From: a phage
DNA: 64,000 nt
Reading direction: 5' to 3' (one strand)
Sequence record: PV467748.1
Numbering within the stretch: the first letter of the stretch is position 1; each line of letters begins with the position of its first letter. The translations under genes were made by a program, and so were the position numbers. The notes beneath the pieces were generated by a model. The model searched no databases. It had not been told where the DNA came from and worked only from the letters and a program-made list of their open reading frames with translations. This document shows, piece by piece, positions 16,384 through 63,985 of the stretch.

Positions 16384-16440
16384 AATGTTCTCCTCATGTT
16401 TGTGTAAGGTAATAGTACCACATCCTTGTGGTGTTGTAAA

Positions 16441-18564
16441 CTACATTTTGAATTTATTTGATAAAGAAGAGATATCCAAAGACGCTGCAAGGATTTCCAT
16501 AGCTTCGTTGCTTTCAGAAACGGATTCATTAACCAAGAATTGACTAAATCCATCCATCAGGCGAACTTCACCAGTTTCCATCAAATGGTCACCATCGTAA
16601 ACAGATTCGCTGAGCTCTGAAGGAGGTGTTACGGTAGCTTCCATAAGGTATTTGTGAGATACTCTATCATTCATGGCAAAAGCCGCTACTTTATCAACCT
16701 TCAACAATAATCCGCGCGGAAGGATAATTTCTGCTTCTTCGGCATATTCTGTAAGGTCACCAGGAGCGATAACTTTAACTGCTTCAGCACCTCGAATAAC
16801 CATACCAATTTCAGCAATTCTATCTGCAGGACCTTCAGGTGCAATTGGATTACCAAACTCGTCTTCTTCCCATTCTACCTCTTCGTCATCGACTTCACCC
16901 ACATCAGATGAACTACCACTAGCCAATTTAAACAACTCATCAGCTGAGGACAAAGAACCTTCACCACCAACAAAAACGGCTTGGTTGTCGAGGGCCATAT
17001 AATTTTTACCGAATTCACCAAAGATGTTAGGCTTTAATGAGGCTGACACAAAGTTCTTAAAGTAAAATGTTTTGTTATCGATATTATGGCGCAGAATTTT
17101 GTATGGCAAATCCTGACCACGATACAAAATAGTACCCTTAGGAAGTTTAATACCCTTAGTAAATGCTGAGTCTAAATCCTTAATCAATTTAATAGCCGTT
17201 GTATTGTTTTCGGATTCAGGTTTACCTAAAAGGAATAAGTTCATAGGAGCATATTCAGCCGCGCAATATTCAATAATAGCATTGCTTTCGTCTTTGGTTA
17301 GGTCCTTAGGTTTAATGAGCTCGCCTGAATAAGCATATGCATCACTAATAGAATCGTTAACCAGTTTATAAACTGCTTCCATAGCGAAAGCAATTCGAGA
17401 GGCCTTTTCTGAAGGGGAACCCTTAAAACGGGTACTCAGGTTATTAACAATTTTCTTAATAATATCCAGACTATTGGTTGTATTGATTTGCGAAAGACCA
17501 CTTAAAAGTCTATCGACTTCTGTATTAAAAAATGCCATATTATTAGAGTAAATTTCAAACCCTTGTTTATCTCTATTAGCATAATTTAGTTTAAATTTAC
17601 TATCAGTCATTAAAGCGTGTGTGAGAGCAATAGTGTATCTAAAGTTGGCAAGGTCCTCGCTCTTAGATTTAAACTGAGAAGCCTGGCGCATTTTAGTAAT
17701 AGCACCTTTTTTAAAGTTCTGGCTAATCTGTTCAATACCTTCATTCTCAGGGCCTTCAGCCGTGTGAACAGGTACAGAAGCTTCAAACTCATTATAAACC
17801 TGCAATTCTTTAGGGGACAAAGTTTCAGGTTCGGCAGTAGAATACTGCGCCGCTGCTGCCATACGACGGGAAATCTTAGTACGGGTAATGACAGCCTTAT
17901 CGGTACGTTTCTCTTCAACTTGTGCAATAGATGCCGCTACTGCTTCAACCTTACTTACGGCCTGGCCGGTTTTCTTAGAAACATACACTTCGCCAACTTT
18001 AGACTCAACTTTAGTATAAAGATCGGCATTAATTTCAGGCATACCCTTGATATCTTCAATATTAGCACCACGACGTACTAAAAGAACGTAGGTATGTTTT
18101 CCGCTGAATTGGAACATGTCGTCAACAACTTTAAACTTACCACCGGTACGAGCCATAGCCAAACGAGCTAATACGCGCTGAACGGTAGGGCCCTTACCTT
18201 TCATTTTCTTAGTAGGGAAACGGAACAGAACTGCGTCCATTTTAAGTTTGTTTATTTGTTCGTATATGGTATCGAAAATGGTGTTCAGTGTACCAAGTGG
18301 ATCGGTACCCAACCCGCCCTTGAGTTCTGCCGGAGCGCCTTTAGCTGACAAACTCATCAAAATAACATGAACATATTTGTCGCCCGGCTTAACCATTTTA
18401 ATAGCGTCTCCTTGAGACGCATAAGATACCATACGAGCAACCAGATTATCATTACCTGGTGCTTGGATAGAGAAAATCTGTGGAATACCGGAACCCGGTT
18501 TAAGATTTGTTACTGGATAGTTTTTAGCGGAATCACTATCAAAAACCTCATTTAAATTTTCCAT
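16441..18564 (-). CDS. Alt-like ADP-ribosyltransferase paralog 1 (707 aa)
   Basis: N-terminal module shared with the two upstream paralogs; C-terminal R-S-E ART signature (LYRGQ, FVSASL, EAEIILPRG). Confidence 0.8.
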   Translation of the reverse strand: MENLNEVFDSDSAKNYPVTNLKPGSGIPQIFSIQAPGNDNLVARMVSYASQGDAIKMVKPGDKYVHVILMSLSAKGAPAELKGGLGTDPLGTLNTIFDTIYEQINKLKMDAVLFRFPTKKMKGKGPTVQRVLARLAMARTGGKFKVVDDMFQFSGKHTYVLLVRRGANIEDIKGMPEINADLYTKVESKVGEVYVSKKTGQAVSKVEAVAASIAQVEEKRTDKAVITRTKISRRMAAAAQYSTAEPETLSPKELQVYNEFEASVPVHTAEGPENEGIEQISQNFKKGAITKMRQASQFKSKSEDLANFRYTIALTHALMTDSKFKLNYANRDKQGFEIYSNNMAFFNTEVDRLLSGLSQINTTNSLDIIKKIVNNLSTRFKGSPSEKASRIAFAMEAVYKLVNDSISDAYAYSGELIKPKDLTKDESNAIIEYCAAEYAPMNLFLLGKPESENNTTAIKLIKDLDSAFTKGIKLPKGTILYRGQDLPYKILRHNIDNKTFYFKNFVSASLKPNIFGEFGKNYMALDNQAVFVGGEGSLSSADELFKLASGSSSDVGEVDDEEVEWEEDEFGNPIAPEGPADRIAEIGMVIRGAEAVKVIAPGDLTEYAEEAEIILPRGLLLKVDKVAAFAMNDRVSHKYLMEATVTPPSELSESVYDGDHLMETGEVRLMDGFSQFLVNESVSESNEAMEILAASLDISSLSNKFKM

Positions 18565-18567
18565 TAT

Positions 18568-20652
18568 TTACCCTTGGATGAATTTTTCTGGGATGTCATA
18601 GAGGTCTATGCATGAAGCCAAAAGAGGCAGTACATCAAACCGGGTAGATTTAACAAATGAATCAAAAGATACAGGGCTTTCGGAAGTATCGAAGTCATCT
18701 TGGTATACAACCAATTCACCAGTTTCCATTAGTACGTCACCATCATACACTACAGATTCTTGAAGCTCATCTGTTGTCATAACTTCAGCTTGAATGAGTT
18801 TTGTATTATTAGATGTTGTTCCATCATTATTAGAAGCATCTGTTATTTTATTAACTTTGACCATTAATCCACGTGGTAGAATAACTTCAGCTTCAGTTGC
18901 TATTCCGAGATTTCCTGGATATACAACATTAACTTTATGAGCACCGTCAATTGCCCATCCTATTTGAGCTTTAACGTAATCAGGATTTTCCTTATACGCC
19001 CTTATTTCATTAGGGTTAATAGTTATTCCTTCTTCATTTTTATCGACTGTCAATTCATTGCGAACTTCCGGTTCTAAAAGACCGATACCAGCGTGTGTAA
19101 CACCAAATCGTCCAAAAATGATAGGGGTTAAAGAAGTAGATACAAAATTTCTGAAATAGAACACTTTATTTTTAACTAGTGCTTCGTATATAGGAGCAGT
19201 CATACTCTGGGCACGATAAACTGTGATGCCTTCTGGTATACGGTCGCCGTTTTCAAAAGCTGAATCTAAATTATTTATCGCAGATTCAATTTCTTTTTCA
19301 CTCATTACCTCATATCGTTCTGGATTGTAGCGACCTAAAAGAAGATTATTGATGTCAGTATATCCTGAACCACAATATTCTCTGATACCACGCTTTTGTG
19401 ATGGAGTATATTTAGAACCCTCACGAGCAATAGTAATATCAACCATAATACCGCCACCTACACCAGCAAAACTATAAACACATTTTTTAATGAACTTGGT
19501 CTTAGTGGCTTTCCACTTGGACTCGGTTAATTCATTCCAGACGTCGTCAGGTTGACCTTTACGAGTTTTGTTATGCTTGGCCAACCATTTGGCTTTGTAT
19601 TCTTCGAAAATGGTATTAATAGCAGAGGCATATTTTTCTAGAGCTTTAACAGATGTCAAAGGTTCGTTTTTGATGGCCGCAAGAATTTTATCTTTAATTT
19701 TCTCTTGGATTTCACCTATACCGTGAAGAGGAAACATTTTGTAATCGTAATGCAATTCTTCAGCAGTGCCTTCAGCTATTATATTAGCAACCTTATTTTT
19801 AGCCGCAGGAGAATTGTTATTAGTAACCATTTCCTGGGCCTCAGGGATTAATGGAGCTGTTGCTGGTTTATTAAAATCCACTGCAGTAGCTTCATATTTC
19901 TTAAACAGTTCACTTTCATTACGATAAGATTCTAACGATTGACTTGCTGCAATAGCACGACGCGAAATCTTAGTCTTGGTTATAACCATTTTATCAGTGC
20001 GACGTTCTTCAACTTTAGCAATACTGCCGGCAATAGCAGTTTCTTTAGTAACCTGCACACCTTCTTTTTTAGAAATATAAACTTCACCGACATCAGAATC
20101 TACCTTAGTGTATAATTCGGAATTAATTCCAGGCATACCTTTGATATCTTCGATATCAGCTTGTTTACGAACTACTAGAATATAAGTATGTTTACCAGTA
20201 AATTGGTACATAGCCGGAACTACTTTGAAGCGTCCACCTGTTTTTTGAGTTGCCAAACGTTGGATAATCCGTTGGACGATAGGTCCTTGCCCTTTCATTT
20301 TCTTGGTTGGAAAACGGAACATCACAGCATCCATACGAAGCTTTTTAACTTGTTCGAATACTACGTCGAAAATGGTATTAATAGCATCAATAGGAGTAGG
20401 GCCTAAGCCGCCTTTAAGTTCGGCTGGAGAACCTTTAGCTGAAAGGCTCATAAGGATAATGTGGGCGTATTTATCACCTAATTTAACCTGTTTAATAGCA
20501 TCGCCTTCAGAGGCATAAGATACCATACGAGCAACCAATTGGGATTCAGCATCGCCAATCTTCCAAATCTGGGGTACTTTAAGTTTTGGGTTTAAGTTTA
20601 CAGTAGGCAGGGTGCCTTCGGACTCAAACACCTCATTCAATTGTTCGGTCAT
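18568..20652 (-). CDS. Alt-like ADP-ribosyltransferase paralog 2 (694 aa)
   Basis: Same N-terminal module; C-terminal TVYRAQ, FVSTSL, EAEVILPRG. Confidence 0.8.
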   Translation of the reverse strand: MTEQLNEVFESEGTLPTVNLNPKLKVPQIWKIGDAESQLVARMVSYASEGDAIKQVKLGDKYAHIILMSLSAKGSPAELKGGLGPTPIDAINTIFDVVFEQVKKLRMDAVMFRFPTKKMKGQGPIVQRIIQRLATQKTGGRFKVVPAMYQFTGKHTYILVVRKQADIEDIKGMPGINSELYTKVDSDVGEVYISKKEGVQVTKETAIAGSIAKVEERRTDKMVITKTKISRRAIAASQSLESYRNESELFKKYEATAVDFNKPATAPLIPEAQEMVTNNNSPAAKNKVANIIAEGTAEELHYDYKMFPLHGIGEIQEKIKDKILAAIKNEPLTSVKALEKYASAINTIFEEYKAKWLAKHNKTRKGQPDDVWNELTESKWKATKTKFIKKCVYSFAGVGGGIMVDITIAREGSKYTPSQKRGIREYCGSGYTDINNLLLGRYNPERYEVMSEKEIESAINNLDSAFENGDRIPEGITVYRAQSMTAPIYEALVKNKVFYFRNFVSTSLTPIIFGRFGVTHAGIGLLEPEVRNELTVDKNEEGITINPNEIRAYKENPDYVKAQIGWAIDGAHKVNVVYPGNLGIATEAEVILPRGLMVKVNKITDASNNDGTTSNNTKLIQAEVMTTDELQESVVYDGDVLMETGELVVYQDDFDTSESPVSFDSFVKSTRFDVLPLLASCIDLYDIPEKFIQG

Positions 20653-20660
20653 AATAATTC

Positions 20661-22556
20661 CTATTTAAATAAATTTGATAATTTTTCCATAGAATCTTCG
20701 TAAAGGATTTTATCATAACTTTCAAATGAAAGTACTGTGCTATACGAATTTTCTTCTGTGATTTGTTCAGAACCAATAACTTCGCACTCCACCAATACGT
20801 ACTTACCTATAGAACCCATAAGACCTTTAGAAGCACCATACACTTTATTAATTTTAAGCATTACGCCTCTAGGAAGAATAACCTCAGTTTCTGTAGACCA
20901 ATTTGCCAAATTACCTGGTACGATAACTTTAATTTTGTCCGCGCCTTTAATAATTAATCCAAGCTTAATTGTCTCTCTAGCACTTCCGGTTGCACTTTTA
21001 ATTGTGTCTTCTAGATTATTATCTATATCGCTAGAAAGAGCTTCGGGATCTAAATTTGATTGAGCGTGTCCCATTTCGCCAAAAATATTAGGAGCTAATG
21101 AGGTAGATGCGAAAATAGGAAGATACATTACTTTATGTTTTATTGAATTCAAAGCCATTTCGGTGGGCATTATTTGAGATCGATACACTATAGTTCCTTT
21201 AGGGAGCTTTGTACCGTTTTCAAAAGCAGAATCCATATCACCAATCATTTTTATCATTTCATCAGTAGTATCTGTTTTACCTAATAAAAAGTTGTTAATG
21301 TGATTATATCCACCGCGAGTGTACTTTTTGATAGCCTCTTCTTGAGGTTTAGTTAAATTGGGATTGTCATCTATTTTAAACAAAGGTTGTATAGATTTGG
21401 TATAGACTGCTACTAATGATTTTATTACTTCTTTTATTTTAGATTCTCTAGCCCATGTACCTTTAACTGAACCATCTAAAAGAGATGCGGCAACTAATCT
21501 AAGGACGTCCACATGTGTTTTACCTGATTTTAAAGCATTTATAACACCATTAGATTTATCTAAAGAATCTGATGATTCTAAAGCAAACTTTATATCTTTA
21601 ATTAATTTAAGCCTATGCTCATCTATTTCAAACGACGGATTAACACCATTAAAAATATAATCTAAATATTCTGCCATTTCTTTAGAAGTATCTTTTAATA
21701 CTTTAATACCGGCTGACGCTATTTGGCTTTCTTTAGAACCTTCAGAAGAATGCACTGAACTAGTAATAGATAAATCGGAGTAAACTTTTTTATGTTCTTC
21801 TGAAAATTTATTCAATCCTGACGGTTCTGATGTTGAGTATAGTGCATTTATTGCGGCTCGTTTAGAAACCTTTGTTTTGGTTATAACCATTTTATCTGAA
21901 CGAGATTTTTCTATTTCATCTATAGATTTAGCTATGGCTTCTAGTTTAGTAACATCTTCACCTGTTTTCTTTGAAACATATACATCACCAACTTCAGATT
22001 CAACTTTAGTATATAACTCAGCATTAATATTTGGGATGCCTTTTATAGATTCTATATTTTTATTTTTACGGTAGATAAAAACATATGAATGTTTACCACT
22101 GAATTGGTACAAGGCGTCAAGGACCTTGAATTGTCCACCCGCTCTAGAAGCTATCAATTTGGCTAGGACTCTCTGTACGGTTTTTTCCTGCCCTTTCATT
22201 TTCTTGGTTGGAAAACGGAACATCACAGCATCCATACGAAGAGCTTTAATTTGTTCATAGACTATATCAAATATGGAACGAATAGCTGAAATAGGATTTG
22301 TGCCTAGCCCGCCTTTAAGTTCAGCCGGCGTACCTTTAGGAGATAGGCTCATTAAAATAACATGCACGTATTTATCACCCGGCTTAACTTGTCTAATGGC
22401 ATCACCTTCTGAAGTATAAGAAACCATTCGCGCTACAAGGTTATCATTACCTTCTGCCTTTATATTCCAAATCTGTGGTACTTTAAGTTTAGGGTTTAAA
22501 TTAATAGCAGATAAATCTACATCCCCATCAAATATTTCATTTAGTTGTTCAGGCAT
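20661..22556 (-). CDS. alt: Alt-like ADP-ribosyltransferase paralog 3 (631 aa)
   Basis: Same N-terminal module; C-terminal IVYRSQ, FASTSL, ETEVILPRG; adjacent to ligase side as T4 alt. Confidence 0.8.
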   Translation of the reverse strand: MPEQLNEIFDGDVDLSAINLNPKLKVPQIWNIKAEGNDNLVARMVSYTSEGDAIRQVKPGDKYVHVILMSLSPKGTPAELKGGLGTNPISAIRSIFDIVYEQIKALRMDAVMFRFPTKKMKGQEKTVQRVLAKLIASRAGGQFKVLDALYQFSGKHSYVFIYRKNKNIESIKGIPNINAELYTKVESEVGDVYVSKKTGEDVTKLEAIAKSIDEIEKSRSDKMVITKTKVSKRAAINALYSTSEPSGLNKFSEEHKKVYSDLSITSSVHSSEGSKESQIASAGIKVLKDTSKEMAEYLDYIFNGVNPSFEIDEHRLKLIKDIKFALESSDSLDKSNGVINALKSGKTHVDVLRLVAASLLDGSVKGTWARESKIKEVIKSLVAVYTKSIQPLFKIDDNPNLTKPQEEAIKKYTRGGYNHINNFLLGKTDTTDEMIKMIGDMDSAFENGTKLPKGTIVYRSQIMPTEMALNSIKHKVMYLPIFASTSLAPNIFGEMGHAQSNLDPEALSSDIDNNLEDTIKSATGSARETIKLGLIIKGADKIKVIVPGNLANWSTETEVILPRGVMLKINKVYGASKGLMGSIGKYVLVECEVIGSEQITEENSYSTVLSFESYDKILYEDSMEKLSNLFK

Positions 22557-22797: not shown

Positions 22798-24303
22798 TTA
22801 TAGTCCAGTTTGAGACCAATCGCCAAATACATCTTCAAATGTATCAGCTTCTGTTTTATCGAAACGCCAACCTTTAATAATTGGAAGGAAAATACCTACA
22901 GTATCAGTACGTCCTTTAGAATGAACCCAACCATTACATTCGCAGTCAGCAATACGACCAATCAATTTACCTTCACGGGCTTGTTTCATAAGAAGTTCAC
23001 GGTCTAAATCAGGACGGTCTTCTAATGGAATCAATACCTTTTTACCTGATTTATCTTTCTTATGGGTGGTATCTTTAAAGCCTGAGCCACAGTCACTTGT
23101 AATTCGACGACAACGTGATACCAATTCGACACCACCAAGTTTGTTAGGGTCCTTCGAGTGTTCATAATAACCCACTACTTCTAAAGCGATATCGATTACT
23201 TCTTTGAACTTGATAAGATTCTTAGAACGGCGGTTTTCCCAGTAGGAGTCCATGTTCTTAAGGATAATACCTTCCAGACCTTGGTCGACATATTTCTTAT
23301 AAACGACTTTAGCTTCTTCAAGATTATTAACCCATTGCGTTTCAATAGGCTCGACACGTGTAAAGCCTTCAGCCATTTGTACTAATGCAGCTAAACGAAC
23401 ATCGTATTTTTGACCTTTAATTTTGCCTTCAGAATAAACTTCATCTAACGGAACATAGTCCCATGCCTGCAATACCATACCATCTGCTTCAGCTGGAGTA
23501 ATAGTTCCTTGAAGAGCTTTATTAGCCAAACCATTTGAAGTAGAACGGTCGGCGACTGTCTGGAATTCCTTGGCTTTACTTAATTCCGGAAGTTCTTCAT
23601 CAAACATACTAAACAAATCGTTAGATGCTTTAGGTTCAACTTTAGGGGTATGGTAAACTAATTCACCATCAATCATAACGCCATTAGGATGACGTTGACG
23701 AGCTTCTTCGGTCATTTTAATAAGTTCGGCTGCAAGCTTAGTAAGCCCTTGATATTCATTACCACCGCGAGTAAGGAATGTAACGCCCGAATCACGAACT
23801 TCAGCAAAACAACGAGCACCGTCAGCTTTTAATTGAGCAAACGCCGGCCATTTAATATTTTTCTTAATTAGAGCTTCGTCATAAGAACTAGCCAACATCT
23901 GTGGTTGTTCAGGGATTAAACCTTTCCAAACCTTGTTAGCAATAGAAATCGATGCACCACATTCAAGGTCGCGCATCATTACACGACGTAATACCTCGGC
24001 ATCTGGTCCCTTAGCATCGGCAATGATTTGAGCCAGTTCTTCAATAGCAGCATTACCGGTAACCTTACGAGTAGCCAAAGTGAATTCAGCGAAATCAAGA
24101 AGGTCTTCAAGAGTAATCATACCAAAGGATTGGGACGTAAATCCAGGTTCAGGCCACTTTTTGATGCCGTAGTTCAGACGACGGGTATACGCCATACGAT
24201 AAACGCGTTTCAGAAGCTCATTGTCCTTTTCACGAGCAATAATAGCTTCTTTAGCTTTAGTAGAATCAATAGAAGCAATTTCGTTTAAAATATCTAAAAT
24301 CAT
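22798..24303 (-). CDS. 30: ATP-dependent DNA ligase gp30
   Basis: 501 aa; collinear with recalled T4 ligase (MILDILNEIASI..., adenylation motif KADGAR, ...CECNGW..., C-term FEDVFGD). Confidence 0.95.
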   Translation of the reverse strand: MILDILNEIASIDSTKAKEAIIAREKDNELLKRVYRMAYTRRLNYGIKKWPEPGFTSQSFGMITLEDLLDFAEFTLATRKVTGNAAIEELAQIIADAKGPDAEVLRRVMMRDLECGASISIANKVWKGLIPEQPQMLASSYDEALIKKNIKWPAFAQLKADGARCFAEVRDSGVTFLTRGGNEYQGLTKLAAELIKMTEEARQRHPNGVMIDGELVYHTPKVEPKASNDLFSMFDEELPELSKAKEFQTVADRSTSNGLANKALQGTITPAEADGMVLQAWDYVPLDEVYSEGKIKGQKYDVRLAALVQMAEGFTRVEPIETQWVNNLEEAKVVYKKYVDQGLEGIILKNMDSYWENRRSKNLIKFKEVIDIALEVVGYYEHSKDPNKLGGVELVSRCRRITSDCGSGFKDTTHKKDKSGKKVLIPLEDRPDLDRELLMKQAREGKLIGRIADCECNGWVHSKGRTDTVGIFLPIIKGWRFDKTEADTFEDVFGDWSQTGL

Positions 24304-26346: not shown

Positions 26347-26360
26347 AATATTTTCCTCAA

Positions 26361-26378
26361 TGGAGGCCGAAGCCTCCA
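26361..26378 (-). promoter_or_regulatory. Intercistronic RNA hairpin ggaggc-UUCG-gccucc just upstream of RBS
   Basis: Perfect stem with UUCG tetraloop on the minus-strand transcript; same hairpin recurs at 62990..63005. Confidence 0.5.
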
Positions 26379-26387
26379 TTTTTAAGA

Positions 26388-26753
26388 TTAGATATCGAAT
26401 TCATTCAGAACTACATCAAAGATTGCTTCCAGGTGTTCAGGTTTAGCTCGGTTGCTCAGGATGTGACGAATCCAGGTTTTAACCAGAAGCTTACGATTAG
26501 AACCGTTCCAGCAAGGATGGGTACCTAAATCACGTTGACGGAAATCGTCATCTAAAGCGATTTTAAAAGTAGAACCTTCCATAGTGATTGAAACCGTAAT
26601 ACCATTTTCAAAGCGCATGTAAACGTAGTTAGGAGTCATGCACTGTTCGATTTCACACACTGTACCGTTTTCGTGTTTCCACAGGCAAATAACTTCGGAA
26701 GAACCAGCGATACCGTTAGAAACATATTTACGTTCGAAGTTGATGTAGTTCAT
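26388..26753 (-). CDS. Hypothetical protein, 121 aa
   Basis: ORF track 26388..26846; start moved to Met32 (MNYINFERKY...) preceded by GGAG RBS inside the conserved leader. Confidence 0.5.
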   Translation of the reverse strand: MNYINFERKYVSNGIAGSSEVICLWKHENGTVCEIEQCMTPNYVYMRFENGITVSITMEGSTFKIALDDDFRQRDLGTHPCWNGSNRKLLVKTWIRHILSNRAKPEHLEAIFDVVLNEFDI

Positions 26754-26793
26754 TTTTATTCTCCAGTTTGTTTTCGTATTATTTGGTACAGCT

Positions 26794-26826
26794 CTATAAT
26801 AACACAACCTGTACCAAAGTAAAACA
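26794..26826 (-). promoter_or_regulatory. Early-type promoter (minus), -10 TATTAT, -35 GTTTTAC
   Basis: Upstream of the conserved leader for the 121 aa gene; weaker -35 match. Confidence 0.35.
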
Positions 26827-26827
26827 T

Positions 26828-27160
26828 TTATTTCACAACATTCCAATTTTTCATATCAAGTTTACCAACTTTTTTCATCTGAGCAATCAGACGTTCAGCG
26901 CGTGTACGGGCATTAACGTAATAGAATTCACCAATTTTGTTTTCTTCAATACGACCAGTAATTACAGTTTTCAGTTCATAAATCCAACCTGTAAAGAAGT
27001 TGTGAAGCTCGATGGTAAATGTGAAATCAGTACCCATACCTTCAGTTGTTTCAACTTCGATGATATCACCTTCAACTGCAGTCAGGACCCACATGGTTTC
27101 TTGATATCCACCGTTGAAACATTTAGCTTTAACAGATGCATTCAGATTTACAGTTTTCAT
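26828..27160 (-). CDS. Hypothetical protein, 110 aa
   Basis: ORF with same conserved 5' leader and early promoter. Confidence 0.5.
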   Translation of the reverse strand: MKTVNLNASVKAKCFNGGYQETMWVLTAVEGDIIEVETTEGMGTDFTFTIELHNFFTGWIYELKTVITGRIEENKIGEFYYVNARTRAERLIAQMKKVGKLDMKNWNVVK

Positions 27161-27199
27161 TTTATTCTCCAGTTTGTTTTCGTATTATTTGGTACATGT

Positions 27200-27231
27200 C
27201 TATAGTATCATGCCTACCGGAGATGTACACC
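27200..27231 (-). promoter_or_regulatory. T4-type early promoter (minus): GTGTACA -35, TACTAT -10
   Basis: rc reads GTGTACAtctccggtaggcatgaTACTAT upstream of the 110 aa gene. Confidence 0.45.
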
Positions 27232-27252: not shown

Positions 27253-27278
27253 AAAAATGGGACTCCGAAGAGTCCCAT
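27253..27278 (-). terminator. Intrinsic terminator (minus) after small basic ORF
   Basis: Hairpin tgggactc-cgaa-gagtccca followed on the transcript by UUUUUGUUU. Confidence 0.6.
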
Positions 27279-33955: not shown

Positions 33956-33982
33956 TTGTTTTCTCCTCATTAGTTGGTAAGT

Positions 33983-34014
33983 CTATACTAACACATCATG
34001 AGGAGATGTAAACT
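33983..34014 (-). promoter_or_regulatory. T4-type early promoter (minus)
   Basis: rc reads GTTTACAtctcctcatgatgtgtTAGTAT upstream of alc. Confidence 0.5.
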
Positions 34015-39214: not shown

Positions 39215-40900
<1,686 letters not shown>

Positions 40901-40923
40901 TTTATTCTCCTTAGTTGACAAGG

Positions 40924-40956
40924 CTATAGTATCACTACCATAGCCTGATGTAAACT
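40924..40956 (-). promoter_or_regulatory. T4-type early promoter (minus)
   Basis: rc reads GTTTACAtcaggctatggtagtgaTACTAT. Confidence 0.5.
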
Positions 40957-41183
40957 TATTTTTGAATTAAGCCCATATAAAATTTAGCGTCTTCCGGGTG
41001 CATACCGTCACAATACTCGCCAGCCATAAAGCGGGTAAGGTCTTCAAGAGGACCTTGAACTTCAATTTGCATACTACAGAATTGTGTGTCTTTGATATAA
41101 GTCATAGTCAAAGAAGGATAACTATTACGGATAACTTCGTAAGTGTATTCAAAATCAACGATATCAATATTAACTTTAGCCAT
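40956..41183 (-). CDS. Hypothetical protein (frd.2 position), 75 aa
   Basis: ORF with early promoter upstream. Confidence 0.45.
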
Positions 41184-41210
41184 TTTATTTTCCTCATGTA
41201 GTTGATAGGT

Positions 41211-41242
41211 CTATAGTATCATGACTACAGACCTTGTAAACA
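41211..41242 (-). promoter_or_regulatory. T4-type early promoter (minus)
   Basis: rc reads GTTTACAaggtctgtagtcatgaTACTAT. Confidence 0.55.
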
Positions 41243-41243
41243 C

Positions 41244-41504
41244 TTATTTTTGAATTTTATCGAGCCACTTACCGAGTTTAATCATTTCTTTGGTAGCTTT
41301 TTCCATACTTCTGAATTTAACCAGTAAAGGTTGGGCATCAACACCCATAACTAAGCTGGTTACAAGACTATGTTCACCTACAAGCCATAAAGAATACGTT
41401 TGAATATCGAGCCCGTAATTTCGGTCTTTATGGACCCGTACACCCATCACTTCAAATTTCTCACTGGCTTTTTCTACTGCATCCAGGAAATCATCTTTAG
41501 TCAT
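41244..41504 (-). CDS. Hypothetical protein, 86 aa from Met22
   Basis: ORF track 41244..41567 overlaps upstream gene; Met22 start abuts upstream stop. Confidence 0.4.
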   Translation of the reverse strand: MTKDDFLDAVEKASEKFEVMGVRVHKDRNYGLDIQTYSLWLVGEHSLVTSLVMGVDAQPLLVKFRSMEKATKEMIKLGKWLDKIQK

Positions 41505-41505
41505 A

Positions 41506-41895
41506 TTAGGCCTTAAAAGTTTTTTGCAAAAGTTCAATGATTTGGTCAACGTTCTGTTCGGTGACAATGCAATGGATTTGAGTCACACCTGCCTTAGCAA
41601 TAGGCGCATCGATTTCTTTATCTTCCACAACATATTCACGGAAGCAATAGAACTCATCTTCGTGCAATTCAAAATAATTTGGCGCTAACCCAACTTCATT
41701 ATAAATCTCGCCGTTAGCGCATTCGATTTCAGTCACAAATTTGTCGCCATCCATGGTCAACATATCCTTTACTTCAAACCAACCGCCGTTGTCTTGGATA
41801 AGGTCGACCATGCTTTTATTATTTTCATATTCGTCCATTTCAATAAAGTCTTTAATGCATTCAGGGCGAAGTTCGTATTTTTTACCGATTTCCAT
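41506..41895 (-). CDS. Hypothetical acidic protein, 129 aa
   Basis: ORF with early promoter upstream. Confidence 0.45.
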   Translation of the reverse strand: MEIGKKYELRPECIKDFIEMDEYENNKSMVDLIQDNGGWFEVKDMLTMDGDKFVTEIECANGEIYNEVGLAPNYFELHEDEFYCFREYVVEDKEIDAPIAKAGVTQIHCIVTEQNVDQIIELLQKTFKA

Positions 41896-41922
41896 TTTTA
41901 TTTCCTCATGTAGTTGATAGGT

Positions 41923-41954
41923 CTATAGTATCATGTTTAAAGGCATTGTAAACC
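41923..41954 (-). promoter_or_regulatory. T4-type early promoter (minus)
   Basis: rc reads GTTTACAatgcctttaaacatgaTACTAT. Confidence 0.55.
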
Positions 41955-41962
41955 ATTAAGTG

Positions 41963-45268: not shown

Positions 45269-48200
45269 ATGGCCGATATTTTAAAACCTGCATTCCGTGC
45301 TACATCCGGACTCGATGCTGCGGGCGAGAAAGTTATCAATGTTGCCAAAGCCGATTACAATGTATTAGATGATGGCGTCAACGTTGAATTCTTTATAGAT
45401 GAGAACACCATCCAGGCGTACGACGAGACGCGCGGATATAAGAAAGGGTTTGCAGTAATCCATGACCAACGTATCTGGGTTGCTCAACGTGATATCGATG
45501 CTCCAGCAGGAACCTTTGTACCTGGTTATTGGACTGCTACCCGTACTGACCCTAAATGGATTACTGTAGCATCTCCTACACGCCAGCTGGCTTCCGGTGA
45601 ATATATTGCTGTGGATTCCGCTGCTAGCTTTACCACATTTACCCTGCCTCCTAACCCTACTGATGGCGATACCGTTGTAATTAAAGATATCGGCGGTCGT
45701 GTAGGTTATAATGAAATCAAGGTCCAATCTAGTTCTGCTCCAGGTGGTGGTAATCAGAAAATTGTCCGTTTTGGTAACCAGTTCACTGAGACCTTAATTA
45801 CGAAGCCTTTTTCCTATAATATGATTATCTTTGCCAACCGTCTTTGGCATTTCTGGGAATCAGGTAATGAAGAACGTGGTATCCGTGTAGAACCTAACAC
45901 CGCTCAGTTCCAAGCTCAAGCAGGCGATAATGTTCTCCGTCGTTATACTTCAGGTGCAGTAATTAAGTTTACTCTTCCTAAGTATGCGAACCAAGGTGAT
46001 ATTATTAAAACCGCTGATATCGATGGTTTAGGAAGTAAGTTCCACTTAATTGTTGAAACGTTTGATGCTTCATCTTCATTAGGTAAGCTTGGTCAGCATA
46101 GCATGGAATTCCGTACCTCCGGCGATGGATTCTTTGTTTATAACTCTACCGAAAAATTATGGTACGTTTGGGACGGCGACCTTAAAACCCGTTTACGTGT
46201 AATTCGCGATGATGTTGAGCTCTTGGCTAACGAAAGTGTTATTGTTTTTGGCCCTAATAATACAACACCACAGACGATTAATATCACATTACCTACAGGC
46301 GTAGCCCAGGGTGATGTCGTTAAGATTGCTCTGAACTATCTCCGTAAAGCTCAGACGGTAAATATTAAGGCTGCCGTAGGAGATAAAATAGCTTCTTCGG
46401 TTCAATTGCTCCAGTTCCCTAAACGTTCTGAATATCCGCCAGATACTGAATGGGTTCTGAATGACGTATTGACCTTCAATGGCAACTTAAGTTATACTCC
46501 GGTTATTGAACTTAGCTATATAGAAGACACCGCTACAGGTGGCAAATATTGGGTTGTTGCTCAGAACGTTCCTACTATAGAACGTGTGGATTCTAAGGAC
46601 GATTTAACCCGTGCTCGCCTCGGTGTTATTGCTCTGGCGTCACAAACGCAAGCAAACGTCGACCATGAAAATAATCCTGAAAAAGAACTTGCAATTACTC
46701 CACAGACTTTAGCTAATCGTGTAGCGACTGAATCTCGTCGTGGTATTGCTCGTATTGCTACTACTGCTCAGGTGAACCAGGATACAACCTTCGCATTCCA
46801 GGACGATTTAATTATTTCTCCTAAGAAATTAAACGAACGTACTGCAACCGAAACTCGTCGTGGTGTTGCTGAAATTGCTACGCAAGTTGAAACTGATGCC
46901 GGCATAGATGATACCACAATCATCACTCCTAAGAAGCTACAAGCGCGCCAGGGTTCGGAAAGTCTTTCAGGTATTGTAACATATACCTCTACCGTAGGAA
47001 CCACTCCTGCGACTGCTAGAGACACTGTAGGTACTAACGTTTATAATAAGAACGTAGGCAATTTGGTTATTTCTCCTAAAGCACTTGACCAGTATAAAGC
47101 TACTCAAGTTCAACAGGGTACAGTATATCTTTCTAACCAATCCGAAGTTAACGCAGGTCAATCTGCAAGTGGATTTGCTAACAGTGCTGTTTCTCCTGAA
47201 ACATTACATGCTCGTGTGGCTCTTGATACTCGTACAGGGTTAATTGAAATTGCTACGCAACAGGAAACTGATACCGGAACAGATTATACTCGTGCAGTAA
47301 CGCCTAAAACGTTAAATGATAGGAAAGCTACGGAAGGATTGACTGGTATTGCTAGAATTGCAACACAGGTAGAATTTGATGCAGGTACGTTAGATAATGT
47401 TATTTCAACTCCGTTGAAAATTAAAACAAGATTTAATGATACTGCTAGAACTTCTGTCTCAGCAGCCAGTGGTTTGGTTGAATCAGGAACCTTATGGAAC
47501 CATTATACACTAGATATTAGAGAAGCAAATGAGACTCAACGTGGTACTGCTCGCCTGGCGACCCAGACCGAAGTCAACGTTGGTACCGATGATAAAACCA
47601 TCATCACTCCTTTGAAATTACACTCTAAAAAATCTACTGAAAGCTCTGAAGGTATTATTCGTGTTGCAACGAATACCGAAACAACCGCAGGAACTTCTAA
47701 AGTTTTGGCTGTAAGCCCTTCTGGTTTAAAATATGTAGTACAGACCGAAACCACTTGGGAAGCTACTGCACTTCGTCGTGGATTTGTTAAACTAACCGAA
47801 GGTGCTTTAACCCATTCAGGAAATAAAGTTACCGGTTCCGGTGTTAAATTTAACTCAGGTACAGGCCTTTATGAGAACGATGATACTGTTCTGAACGCAG
47901 CGAACTATCCTAAAACGGGTTATGCGGTTTCATCTTACGAGATGAATAAAACCTTACAGAACTTTTTACCTATAAATGCTACGGCTGTGAACTCCGAGAA
48001 ATTAGATGGCCTAGATTCACTCCAGTTCATTCGTAGAGACGTCGACCAAACGGTTAATGGTTCTTTAACCCTGGCCAAACAATTGAACCTGGCGGCTCCT
48101 CTGGTGTCTTCTAGTACTGCTAATATTACCGGCAACACTATTTTAGGTTCTCTGGAAGTAACCGGGAATTCTACTTTTAAAAATGATGTATCTGTTAGCT

Positions 48201-54507: not shown

Positions 54508-55305
54508 ATGGCAGTAGCAGGACCGTGGATAGGAACTTCTGCATTAGCTAATACAGGACAAAATTGGATGGGCGGCGCTGCCCAACGATTGAGAATGGGC
54601 GCCCCGTTTTGGATGAGTAATATGAACGGTCGGTCTGTTGAAGTAATTCATACCATAACAGCAAACCATAACTTTAACGGGCAATGGTTCCGCGACCGCT
54701 GTTTTGAAGCAGGCAGCGCACCTATTGTGTTTAATATCACAGGCGATATAGTATCTTACGACCGTAATGTTCCATTGTTCTTTATGAATGCGGATACTCC
54801 AAACGAATACGTTGTTTTGAATATTCATGGTGGGGTTCATATGTGGGGCCGAGGCGGCCACGGTGGGTGGACCCATTCAGGTGGCGACGGTAACGGTCAA
54901 TGGGGTGGTGATTGTATAGTCAACCACATAGGTCATAGACTACGTATTTGGAACTATGGGGTTATCTGTGGTGGTGGCGGTGGCGGTGGTGGCATTGCGT
55001 ATCGTCCTCACTCAGGTGCTAACTGGCAAGATATCGGTGGTGGTGGTGGACGTCCATTTGGTCCTGGTGGCGGTGGTGGATACTCCGGCGGTGGTGCTTC
55101 TTATGAAAGCCCCGGCGGTGGATACAATTATGGTAACGCCCACTCAGGTCATGGCGGTGATGCTGGCGCCGCAGGCCAGAACGCATGGAATGATGGTGGT
55201 AAAGTTCTTAAAGTTGGGGCCGGCGGCGGTTCTGGGGCTGCTGTCGCCGGTTCTGCTCCTGCATGGGGAGCGACAGGTACGATTTACGGGCCTTGGCTTA
55301 GTTAA
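54508..55305 (+). CDS. 38: T2-type gp38 receptor-recognising adhesin (glycine-rich motifs)
   Basis: Start at Met5 after GGAGG RBS; conserved N-terminal attachment domain ([27 protein letters not shown]), poly-Gly motifs [22 protein letters not shown] alternating with variable segments. Confidence 0.85.
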
Positions 55306-61509: not shown

Positions 61510-61654
61510 AATCATCTCCATTAGTTGATAGGTCTATAATATCATGATTAATGGAGATGTATACTGATTTATGCCAATTTCCACAACAATAAACTAAAAC
61601 ATACGCAAATCACTGGGGTACAGGCCATCCAAATAAGGCACCACGTTTTGCTAC

Positions 61655-61912: not shown

Positions 61913-61940
61913 TTTTGTTTCTCCTCATAAGTTGATAGGA

Positions 61941-61973
61941 AGATAGTAACACCGTCCTTGGTGTATGTAAACT
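61941..61973 (-). promoter_or_regulatory. T4-type early promoter (minus)
   Basis: rc reads GTTTACAtacaccaaggacggtgtTACTAT. Confidence 0.5.
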
Positions 61974-62989: not shown

Positions 62990-63005
62990 AGGAGGCCGAA
63001 GCCTC
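62990..63005 (-). promoter_or_regulatory. Intercistronic RNA hairpin ggaggc-UUCG-gccucc downstream of rIIB
   Basis: Identical hairpin to 26361..26378; immediately upstream of next RBS. Confidence 0.5.
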
Positions 63006-63016
63006 CGTTTATTGAT

Positions 63017-63985
63017 TTAGTATTTGTATTCGTTTGCGAACTGTTCAGTGACGTCTTCCAGAACTTCATAATAACATACGCGCATTTTAGCATCACCGTA
63101 ATCGACTGGGATACTAACAACATCACGTGGGTTAACTTTACATGAAACTACTTTACAGTTTGAGCTACCAAAATGTCTGATATAGCTACGAGAGCAAACG
63201 TGCAGACCTGTTGAACAAGTTACTTCGTCGTCATCATTTACACGCGAACGAGGCATTTTAACTGGCTTACCTGGCGAGTTATCAAACGTACCGGTACGGC
63301 AGTCGGTGTAATCGGAGTTAACTACCTTCCACGTAATAAAGTGGCCGTCTTCAGTGATTTTGATATCGTTTGCAACCAGGAAGTCAAACAAACGCTGTAC
63401 AGCTTTTTCGCTTGGGTTTTCTAACAGATTCTCAAGGAACGGCAGGTAGAATTCGAAGTCTTCACCATTTTCCATTGAGGTGATAATACGGTCAATCAAC
63501 CCTGAACGCAATTCGATACCTTGATAAACCAGACGTCCACCTTCAATACGAACGTTACCTTTAACAAATGCTTTAACAGCTTCTTTAATAGAAATCAGTT
63601 TAATTGCATCATCGAAACGGGATTCTTTAAGAGCCTGTACGATGGCATCGAAATGTTTGTTCTTATTAGTGGTGTTCCATACTGTACGGCCTTCAGTGAT
63701 GGATACGAATTTAGAACTGGCATTCCAAATAATTTCAGGACGAGAACCACCAATAGTAGCTTCAACAGGAACTACACGAGGCTCGTTAGGAACTGTTACT
63801 TTGATATTTCCGGTAATAACCACTTGCGAACGTTTAGCTTCTTCAGCATTTTTCAGGACTTTACGAATGGTATCAACCGAAACACCATACCAGTCAGCTA
63901 GTTCTTGCTGAGTATAATTACCAGATTTATAGAGGGAAACTACTTTCTCTTGTTCAGATTTAGCCAGACACTTAATATTGTACAT
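63017..63985 (-). CDS. rIIB: rIIB membrane-associated protein
   Basis: 322 aa; near-collinear with recalled T4 rIIB (MYNIKCL.K.EQ, SGNYTQQELADW.GVSVDTIR.VLKNAEEAKR, FLENLLENPS, RVNDDD, CYYEVLEDVTEQFA). Confidence 0.95.
   Translation of the reverse strand: MYNIKCLAKSEQEKVVSLYKSGNYTQQELADWYGVSVDTIRKVLKNAEEAKRSQVVITGNIKVTVPNEPRVVPVEATIGGSRPEIIWNASSKFVSITEGRTVWNTTNKNKHFDAIVQALKESRFDDAIKLISIKEAVKAFVKGNVRIEGGRLVYQGIELRSGLIDRIITSMENGEDFEFYLPFLENLLENPSEKAVQRLFDFLVANDIKITEDGHFITWKVVNSDYTDCRTGTFDNSPGKPVKMPRSRVNDDDEVTCSTGLHVCSRSYIRHFGSSNCKVVSCKVNPRDVVSIPVDYGDAKMRVCYYEVLEDVTEQFANEYKY

Follow-up and report, generated by a model that had tools for sequence, protein, structure and literature searches.

A stretch of phage DNA of 64,000 nt from sequence record PV467748.1 (the window, to the whole of which all positions refer) was analyzed with regard to a short sequence that is repeated in front of two adjacent small genes on its minus strand. 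The window is 96-98% identical to phages of the genus Dhakavirus (Bp7, JS98, WG01, IME08 and others) and belongs with the JS98/Bp7 group. The annotation of T4, IME08 and JS98 identifies the two genes as orthologues of 30.8 and 30.7, in which Pfam concurs, and the open reading frame (ORF) that precedes them as 30.9-like. With gp31 and rIII located upstream, the locus is the small-ORF, or hyperplastic, region between rIII and the DNA ligase gene. Reading the minus strand from 27500 to 26200, the 53-aa ORF is followed by a hairpin with a T-run, an A-rich stretch, the promoter GTGTAC-17-TGaTACTAT, the bases agaca, the 36-mer TGTACCAAATAATACGAAAACAAACTGGAGAATAAA and the 110-aa ORF. Immediately after the stop of the latter come a second promoter, (G)TTTTAC-17-TGtTATTAT, the bases agagc, the 36-mer again, one A and the 121-aa ORF. 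The coordinates of these features are collected in Table 1.

The 64-kb window holds exactly two occurrences of the 36-mer, both on the minus strand, and the two leaders are direct repeats 406 bp apart with 30.8 between them. The ATG at 27160 directly abuts copy A, and one additional A separates copy B from the ATG at 26753. A preliminary description of the locus had given the repeat a length of 38 nt; its coordinates were correct, and the length resolves into 36 exact bases plus the A/ATG context. The similarity of the two copies extends 15 nt further upstream, past the -10 box, to give 51 nt at 92% identity (repeat finder, family D10). The proteins encoded downstream are unrelated, as had been stated: BLASTP detected no similarity between them and they fall into separate Pfam families (PF06019 and PF06919), which rules out a hidden gene duplication. 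Repeat searches of the window, together with the unlikeness of the proteins, likewise agree with a duplication limited to the leader and ribosome-binding region. The early leaders of this genome are A-rich and have promoter and Shine-Dalgarno (SD) consensus elements in common, which could favor a chance similarity of AT-rich ribosome-binding regions. However, the identity is 36/36, no further match with up to three mismatches exists in the window and 100 shuffles gave none either. As to an assembly artefact, the same pair is present in independently sequenced genomes, with two matched places in 22 of the 45 GenBank records that hold the 36-mer and 16 genomes inspected directly. Chance and artefact thus deserve practically no credence, and we consider them ruled out by the shuffles and the independent genomes.

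Table 1. Features of the 30.9-30.7 locus in the window, in minus-strand order.
Feature	Position	Strand	Remarks
30.9-like ORF, 53 aa	27443-27282	-	Annotations of T4, IME08 and JS98
Intrinsic terminator hairpin ATGGGACTCTTCGGAGTCCCAT + T-run	27257..27278	-	After the 30.9-like ORF; 9-bp stem, UUCG loop (terminator scan)
Early promoter A (P30.8)	27202..27230	-	-35 GTGTAC 27230-27225; TGn 27210-27208; -10 TACTAT 27207-27202
Candidate anti-SD TCTCCGGT	27216..27223	-	In the spacer of promoter A; complementary to ACTGGAGA (27173-27166), 8 bp
Leader copy A	27161..27196	-	36-nt exact repeat; predicted to be about the whole 5' untranslated region of 30.8
RegB/S1 consensus site A GGAGAATAAAA	27160..27170	-	Coincides with the 30.8 SD; final A is the A of ATG
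30.8 orthologue, 110 aa	26828..27160	-	PF06019 Phage_30_8, E = 4.6e-48; bracketed by the two leader copies
Early promoter B (P30.7)	26796..26824	-	-35 (G)TTTTAC 26824-26819; TGn 26804-26802; -10 TATTAT 26801-26796
Inverted repeat TTTGGTACAG / CTGTACCAAA	26782..26818	-	Arms 26818-26809 and 26791-26782; brackets the -10 box of promoter B
Leader copy B	26755..26790	-	36-nt exact repeat, plus A at 26754; predicted to be about the whole 5' untranslated region of 30.7
RegB/S1 consensus site B GGAGAATAAAA	26754..26764	-	Coincides with the 30.7 SD
30.7 orthologue, 121 aa	26388..26753	-	PF06919 Phage_T4_Gp30_7, E = 4.1e-52

Each copy of the repeat follows an early-type promoter of its own, in agreement with the preliminary description. 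A scan with the T4 early consensus found both promoters, A and B, and a plain sigma-70 scan found B; the homologue of promoter A in phage TuIa carries a -35, a -10, a ribosome-binding site and stem-loops annotated by its depositors (AJ621579), and promoter B is also found, conserved, before 30.7 of T4 and other genera. The two are among about 15 early promoters that the T4 early-promoter pattern detects on the minus strand of the window, and A is also a member of an early-promoter family within it (repeat family D5). Both show a 17-nt spacing and a TGn extension, which is typical of very strong T4 early promoters (PMC2988021), and in both the distance from the end of the -10 box to the G of TGTACC is 7 nt. 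Upstream of the -35 box there is an AT-rich stretch, ctaaatcttaaaaaaaa (27249-27233) in A and the shorter gaaataaat (26834-26826) in B, as judged by inspection. From the spacing, transcription is predicted to start at G27195 and G26789, so that the repeat would constitute essentially the entire 5' untranslated region of each gene (around 34-35 nt), with GGAG located 7-8 nt upstream of the ATG in both copies. The leader RNA is unstructured, with a minimum free energy (MFE) of 0 kcal/mol (z = +0.7), and no Rfam match with E <= 1 was obtained between 26000 and 28000; on these two grounds a structured RNA element or riboswitch was rejected.

Hairpins are associated with both promoters. Upstream of their first promoter, all relatives have kept the terminator hairpin, which in cassette A supplies the stem-loop. 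In promoter B the inverted repeat surrounds the -10 box, and its 3' arm supplies the 5' end of leader copy B; a 10-bp hairpin can form there only in RNA reading through from 30.8, the SD staying free. Its core, GGTACAGG/CCTGTACC, is conserved with a different loop in T4, in a second lineage (loci L014-16/L027-29) and in a metagenome contig (L006), and the element is a candidate RNA 5' stabilizer, processing site or DNA-level element.

Each copy ends in 11 nt that match letter for letter GGAGAAUAAAA, the optimal target of RegB/S1 in T4, whose degenerate form is GGAGRAYARAA (Durand et al. 2006, PMC1702504). RegB cuts midway through the GGAG in the SD of early mRNAs, which are thereby inactivated (PMC1702504). 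In the window the degenerate motif has three matches against 0.44 expected, all of them directly 5' of a start codon, the third (40900-40910) being that of another early gene. In T4, the 30.7 mRNA serves as a standard substrate of RegB, with the cut at the GGAG of its SD (Juskauskas et al. 2022, PMC9409239, Fig. 4B). The exact consensus in both copies, along with the experimental cleavage of the T4 30.7 orthologue at this place, gives substance to the role as an RNA-processing site that had been proposed among other possibilities. In promoter-proximal transcripts the site is unpaired (MFE 0 to -0.7 kcal/mol), and that of copy A may be paired in read-through RNA. JS98, a phage of the same genus, has an annotated regB; tblastn with approximate query sequences gave no match to regB or regA in the window, and T4-type loci for these genes lie outside it. 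We infer that both mRNAs would be cleaved by RegB in this phage. In two Dhakaviruses, VR5 and PSD9 (L017 and L070), GGATAATAAAATG takes the place of the SD block in copy B, and this replacement upstream of 30.7 (AAAGGATAATAAAATG) turns GGAG into GGAU combined with the strict A-rich consensus. That class is rarer and still cleavable by RegB (Durand et al. 2006, PMC1702504).

The gene between the two leaders behaves as an exchangeable unit in nature. Two alleles of 30.8, of 110 and 122 aa and with around 38% identity, are found inside Dhakavirus, the longer one being carried by IME08, IME341, dhaeg, C6 and PSD9. When the window is compared with IME08, the identity is 97-100% up to the end of leader A, drops to 33-67% over exactly the 30.8 ORF and returns to 97% from promoter B on. 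A chimeric query in which promoter A and the leader were joined directly to the 30.7 ORF gave single-piece matches. TuIa, JM10 and AV109 present 30.9, the terminator, the promoter, the leader and 30.7, without 30.8. AV109 and a contig with the intact arrangement (L039) are 99% identical on both sides of a precise gap of 443 nt, which takes out 30.8, promoter B and the 5' part of leader B, and whose junction lies inside the 15-nt direct repeat GGAGAATAAAATGAA. JM10, a Mosigvirus, is around 100% AV109-like up to the promoter spacer, with a Mosigvirus -35 and spacer, and sequence that is 96-100% JS98-like begins at tgtgttattatagacctgtacc... and continues over the first ~170 nt of 30.7 (its 5' half), with a Dhakavirus -10 region and leader. 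These identities mark an inter-genus patch in JM10, the left junction of which falls within the promoter, a hybrid one. More generally, in 37 loci anchored on 30.9 the next gene can be 30.8, 30.7, 30.6 or another. The allele replacement, the precise deletion and the hybrid promoter, with their junctions in or beside the repeat, bear out the earlier suggestion of a recombination scar through which cassettes are swapped.

The distribution of the leader was evaluated in the regions 5' of 30.8 and 30.7 extracted from T4 and 16 related loci. In T4 and its close relatives the leader of 30.8 is tcttacacaaacaaaGGAGaataaaATG and that of 30.7 is cctgtaccgcaattaaacatctcGGAGaataaaaATG; the corresponding sequences are ...cacaataaaacactGGAG... 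and cctgtaccaacaaatgaaaacaactGGAG... in the second lineage (L014-16), and cttgtaccacctaatcaataaaacaaccGGAG... and cctgtaccaacaaacaacttaaacatctGGAG... in the metagenome contig. In these three groups the two leaders have only the block GGAGAATAAA(A)ATG in common, sometimes accompanied by the 5' TGTACC; in T4 it is the SD block alone. Identity over the full length, including the 5' 25 nt, is confined to Dhakavirus. Since the leaders of the other lineages are alike only in the RegB/SD block, in some cases with TGTACC, the ancestral state was presumably that of two different leaders. All the GenBank phage records with the 36-mer are Dhakavirus-type, with the exception of the Mosigvirus JM10, and it was also found in six IMG/VR contigs, at no more than two places per record or contig. 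Thus, every genome that has the repeat has it only at these two places. The preliminary description would have counted such a restriction against a regulatory element, but it is uninformative in this respect, since a repeat pair flanking a cassette should look exactly so. Copies A and B are identical in six of the 16 Dhakavirus genomes; eight others have one single-nucleotide polymorphism (SNP) in copy A (G>T in four, G>A in one and T>C in three), and the remaining two are those with the replaced SD block in copy B.

Considering the anatomy of the leaders, their match to the RegB consensus, the phylogenetic distribution of their identity and the natural recombinants with junctions in the repeat, all of which are matters of observation, we think it likely that the two copies are a pair of early promoter/leader cassettes of the PeSL type, with RegB-sensitive SDs, that were homogenized in Dhakavirus and flank an exchangeable 30.8. 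PeSLs are composed of an AT-rich region, a stem-loop, an early promoter, an SD and a start codon, and are located between the small ORFs of hyperplastic regions (PMC2839356, PMC4122927). Each copy would be, in full, the 5' untranslated leader of one early transcription unit (that of the 30.8 or of the 30.7 orthologue) and at the same time the 3' part of a PeSL-like cassette made up of a hairpin, a promoter with UP, -35, TGn and -10 elements, an unstructured A-rich leader, GGAG and AUG. The last 11 nt would function as ribosome-binding site and, with ribosomal protein S1, as RegB target, so that the mRNAs of 30.8 and 30.7, sharing this site, may initially be translated efficiently, only to be inactivated jointly a few minutes into infection. 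Homologous recombination in the Dhakavirus lineage would have made the neighboring leaders identical over their full length, either by gene conversion between neighboring cassettes or by excision and re-integration of a mini-circle with 30.8; the two are equally good routes, because a Campbell-type re-integration itself creates identical flanking leaders. The leader repeats would in turn make 30.8 a module that can be exchanged or deleted. In the simplest reading, homogenization would have taken place in the Dhakavirus stem, followed by ordinary drift. The preliminary description was therefore essentially right in its reading of the locus, but did not recognize the known class, PeSL cassettes with a RegB-sensitive SD, to which it would belong.

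The restriction of full-length identity to one genus, the drifting apart of the copies by SNPs in about half of the genomes and the fact that Campbell-type integration of a circle would, according to the published model, create flanking repeats automatically (PMC2839356) are also what could be expected if the repeat were the neutral scar of a single recent duplication or insertion, its identity reflecting its young age and its function being limited to that of a ribosome-binding site. We regard this as unlikely, in view of the perfect RegB/S1 site and strong SD conserved across genera and of a leader that is less variable than the surrounding non-coding DNA and third codon positions. In addition, the repeat has served as crossover point in relatives and is therefore not inert.

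The low variability of the leader is relevant to two further explanations. Among 15 Dhakaviruses the nucleotide diversity (pi) is 0.024 in leader A and 0.019 in leader B, as compared with 0.040 in the 30.7 ORF, where 46 of 122 third codon positions are variable, and 0.05-0.076 in the parts of the promoters upstream of the -10 box. A diversity below that of the adjacent ORF and the promoter-upstream DNA could result if the whole 36-nt leader were an operator, kept identical by selection, through which a trans-acting factor other than RegB, such as the translational repressor RegA, another phage RNA-binding protein or a small RNA, co-regulates 30.8 and 30.7. RegA sites are unstructured, A/U-rich and low in information, include the AUG and have a 5' poly(A) tract (PMC3014915), a loose description that the region between SD and AUG fits. 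Nevertheless, the resemblance to known RegA sites (AAAAUUGUUAUGUAA; AAAAUUAUGUAC in rIIB) is poor: by inspection, around 3/9 positions upstream of the AUG coincide between the SELEX consensus AAAAUUGUUAUGUAA and the leader (GAGAAUAAAAUGAAA), and the fit is limited to the general A/U-richness and the 5' poly(A). A RegA operator, one form of the shared translational operator that the preliminary description had suggested, was considered improbable for this poor match. For an operator in general, other genera with the same two genes lack conservation of the 5' 25 nt, 30.8 is dispensable in nature and the copies differ in ten of the 16 genomes; neither RNA structure nor an Rfam match was found for the leader, and there is no other copy of the motif in the genome, while the operator of a regulon would be expected to recur. 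All this makes a selected operator quite unlikely. Very unlikely, in our opinion, is that the 5' 25 nt (GUACCAAAUAAUACGAAAACAAACU) are a selected cis-element, be it the site of a lineage-specific RNA-binding regulator or an S1-dependent enhancer, or that the leader repeats are attachment-like sites of an integrase-free, integron-like capture. That the leader is less diverse than its flanks is the one hint in this direction; if true, a selected 25-nt element would couple the expression of 30.8 and 30.7.

Some points weigh against homogenized PeSL-type cassettes. Gene conversion and circle integration are indistinguishable by sequence, and the transcript ends, RegB cuts and recombination products attributed to this phage are predictions from its sequence. 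The presence of regB is deduced from JS98, the gene not being inside the window. The differences in ten of 16 genomes imply that exact identity is not maintained, and leaders less diverse than the 30.7 ORF and the promoter-upstream DNA imply that selection may act on the whole leader, recombination alone leaving this low diversity unexplained. Such a constraint fits a functional 5' untranslated region, involving promoter escape, an unstructured A-rich landing site for ribosome and S1 and the RegB site; it falls short of demonstrating a specific operator.

The spacer of promoter A contains a sequence complementary to the SD region, TCTCCGGT, which, lying upstream of the proximal start, would be part only of transcripts reading through the terminator. 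Tentatively, it could hide the SD of 30.8 in such transcripts. An analogous pair with a different spelling, UUCCUUUGU/ACAAAGGAG, exists at the same place in T4, as does UCCAGUG/CACUGGA in one locus of the second lineage (L027). In MFE folds, 10 of 12 "first" cassettes had the SD paired, against none of four 30.7 cassettes; however, 14-72% of the controls with shuffled upstream sequence also paired the SD. No anti-SD was found for copy B in these folds, and some lineages are also devoid of it at the first promoter. Given these shuffled controls and lineages, a conserved anti-SD in the first-promoter spacer is retained as a tentative side observation only.

Other promoter and leader modules of the window are also repeated. 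A second near-identical promoter and leader pair, CATGATACTATAGACCTATCAACTACATGAGGAAA(A)TAAAAATG, is located at 41181-41961 on the minus strand (family D2), with the -35 boxes at 41953 and 41241, 712 bp apart. It brackets two small ORFs near the frd.x small ORFs and gene 32 (ssb), according to the annotation of related records, in a region that is indel-variable among Dhakaviruses, and a 37-nt piece of its promoter and leader matches intergenic DNA of many other T-even genera. Duplicated promoter and leader modules are therefore general in this genome. Several other early promoters have the initial transcribed sequence AGACCTATCAAC in common. A family of early promoters (D4; 576-607, 16389-16420, 33962-33993, 40903-40934, 61513-61544 and 61920-61951) shares the -10 region and the first ~15 transcribed nt (TA(C/T)TATAGACCTATCAAC...GAGGAGA), which indicates that conserved leaders are common here.

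Between 30.7 and 30.6 there is a hairpin with a UUCG tetraloop and no T-run, ATGGAGGCTTCGGCCTCCAT (26360-26379, minus strand), with GGAG in its stem, a class reported to be RegB-resistant; a similar one lies at 62991-63034 (D14). Three tandem paralogous ORFs of 707, 694 and 631 aa (16441-22556, minus strand), each with an Alt-like ADP-ribosyltransferase domain (PF03496), adjoin the DNA ligase gene (22798-24303), where T4 has a single alt. The window also contains three diverged direct repeats of ~100 nt with 61-70% identity (46815-47397, D3) and a run of GGTGGC-type glycine-codon repeats (54972-55235, D9).

The analysis adds early promoters, leaders and likely RegB sites, two of each, to the annotation of Dhakavirus, in which the genes of this region are mostly labelled "hypothetical". 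A single locus displays an intact cassette with perfect 36-bp repeats, the replacement of one allele by another, a precise deletion whose junction falls in the repeat and a promoter that is a hybrid between genera, and it thus offers a clean natural example of the shuffling of small early genes in T4-type phages. With the RegB-sensitive SD block providing microhomology for the exchange, an element of post-transcriptional control would be tied to genome plasticity.

Among known systems, the closest are the PeSLs, described in RB49/phi1, PST/T4 and nt-1/KVP40 (Arbiol, Comeau and Krisch 2010, PMC2839356; Comeau, Arbiol and Krisch 2014, PMC4122927). Their stem-loop can precede the promoter, lie between -35 and -10 or overlap with the -10 (PMC2839356), and the promoter has the form TTTACW ... 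TAYWAT in T-even phages (PMC4122927). When flanking PeSLs recombine, ORFs are deleted or inserted and mini-circles arise; the crossovers that were sequenced lay between the -10 and the ATG or SD (PMC2839356, PMC4122927). As far as can be judged at the level of sequence, every PeSL trait is present at our locus. The promoters read (G)TGTACA ... TACTAT in A and TTTTAC/TTTACT ... TATTAT in B; the stem-loop would be the terminator hairpin (27278-27257) in the former and the inverted repeat around the -10 (26818-26782) in the latter; and both copies have the AT-rich region, the SD and the start codon. The hyperplastic, indel-prone character is apparent in the variable genes after 30.9, the allele swap, the precise deletion and the JM10 hybrid promoter. 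As in the published cases, the ORFs between neighboring copies are ones in which close relatives differ by insertion, deletion or replacement, and the segment in which mini-circles cross over, from the -10 to the SD or ATG, is the one repeated here. There are also differences: Dhakavirus is not among the phages in which PeSLs were described, cassette B is devoid of a terminator, and the conserved part is unusually long and perfect in the leader (36/36), with dissimilar -35 and spacer parts in the two promoters. Mini-circles are known from the published PeSLs and are hypothetical here.

The 30.9-30.3 cluster upstream of DNA ligase in T4 is the same locus with the same genes, a terminator after 30.9, promoters before 30.8 and 30.7 and GGAGAATAAA SD blocks. 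However, the two T4 leaders share the SD block alone, and the full-length duplication is specific to Dhakavirus. Truncaite and coworkers (2006, Virology 344:378; cited in PMC9409239 and PMC1702504), from whose work the TuIa record stems, are said to have reported that a terminator, early promoters, a stem-loop and RegB sites are conserved among 16 phages, and their abstract reportedly mentions "two strong early promoters and two putative RegB sites". With the RegB sites in the SD of T4 motA, motB, regB and other early transcripts (PMC1702504), the locus has in common an exact 11-nt match to GGAGAAUAAAA, single-stranded and situated in the SD; this accounts for only the 3' 11 of the 36 nt, and cleavage at our locus is predicted. 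Read-through transcripts of T4 e, soc, 49 and I-TevI are translationally silenced by structure (PMC3014915). Cassette A resembles them in having an anti-SD, TCTCCGGT, upstream of the proximal start, which would sequester the SD only in read-through RNA, but the known cases use late promoters, copy B is devoid of an anti-SD and shuffled controls often pair the SD. Finally, and by analogy only, integron cassettes (attC/attI) also have short conserved sequences that bracket single promoter-proximal ORFs, and are excised as circles and re-inserted. In contrast to them, the locus has neither an integrase nor a site-specific recombination site, and each cassette has a promoter of its own; exchange here is most simply explained by general homologous or microhomology recombination. 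Rather than a new kind of system, the locus is best regarded as the Dhakavirus instance of the known PeSL/RegB-SD cassettes.

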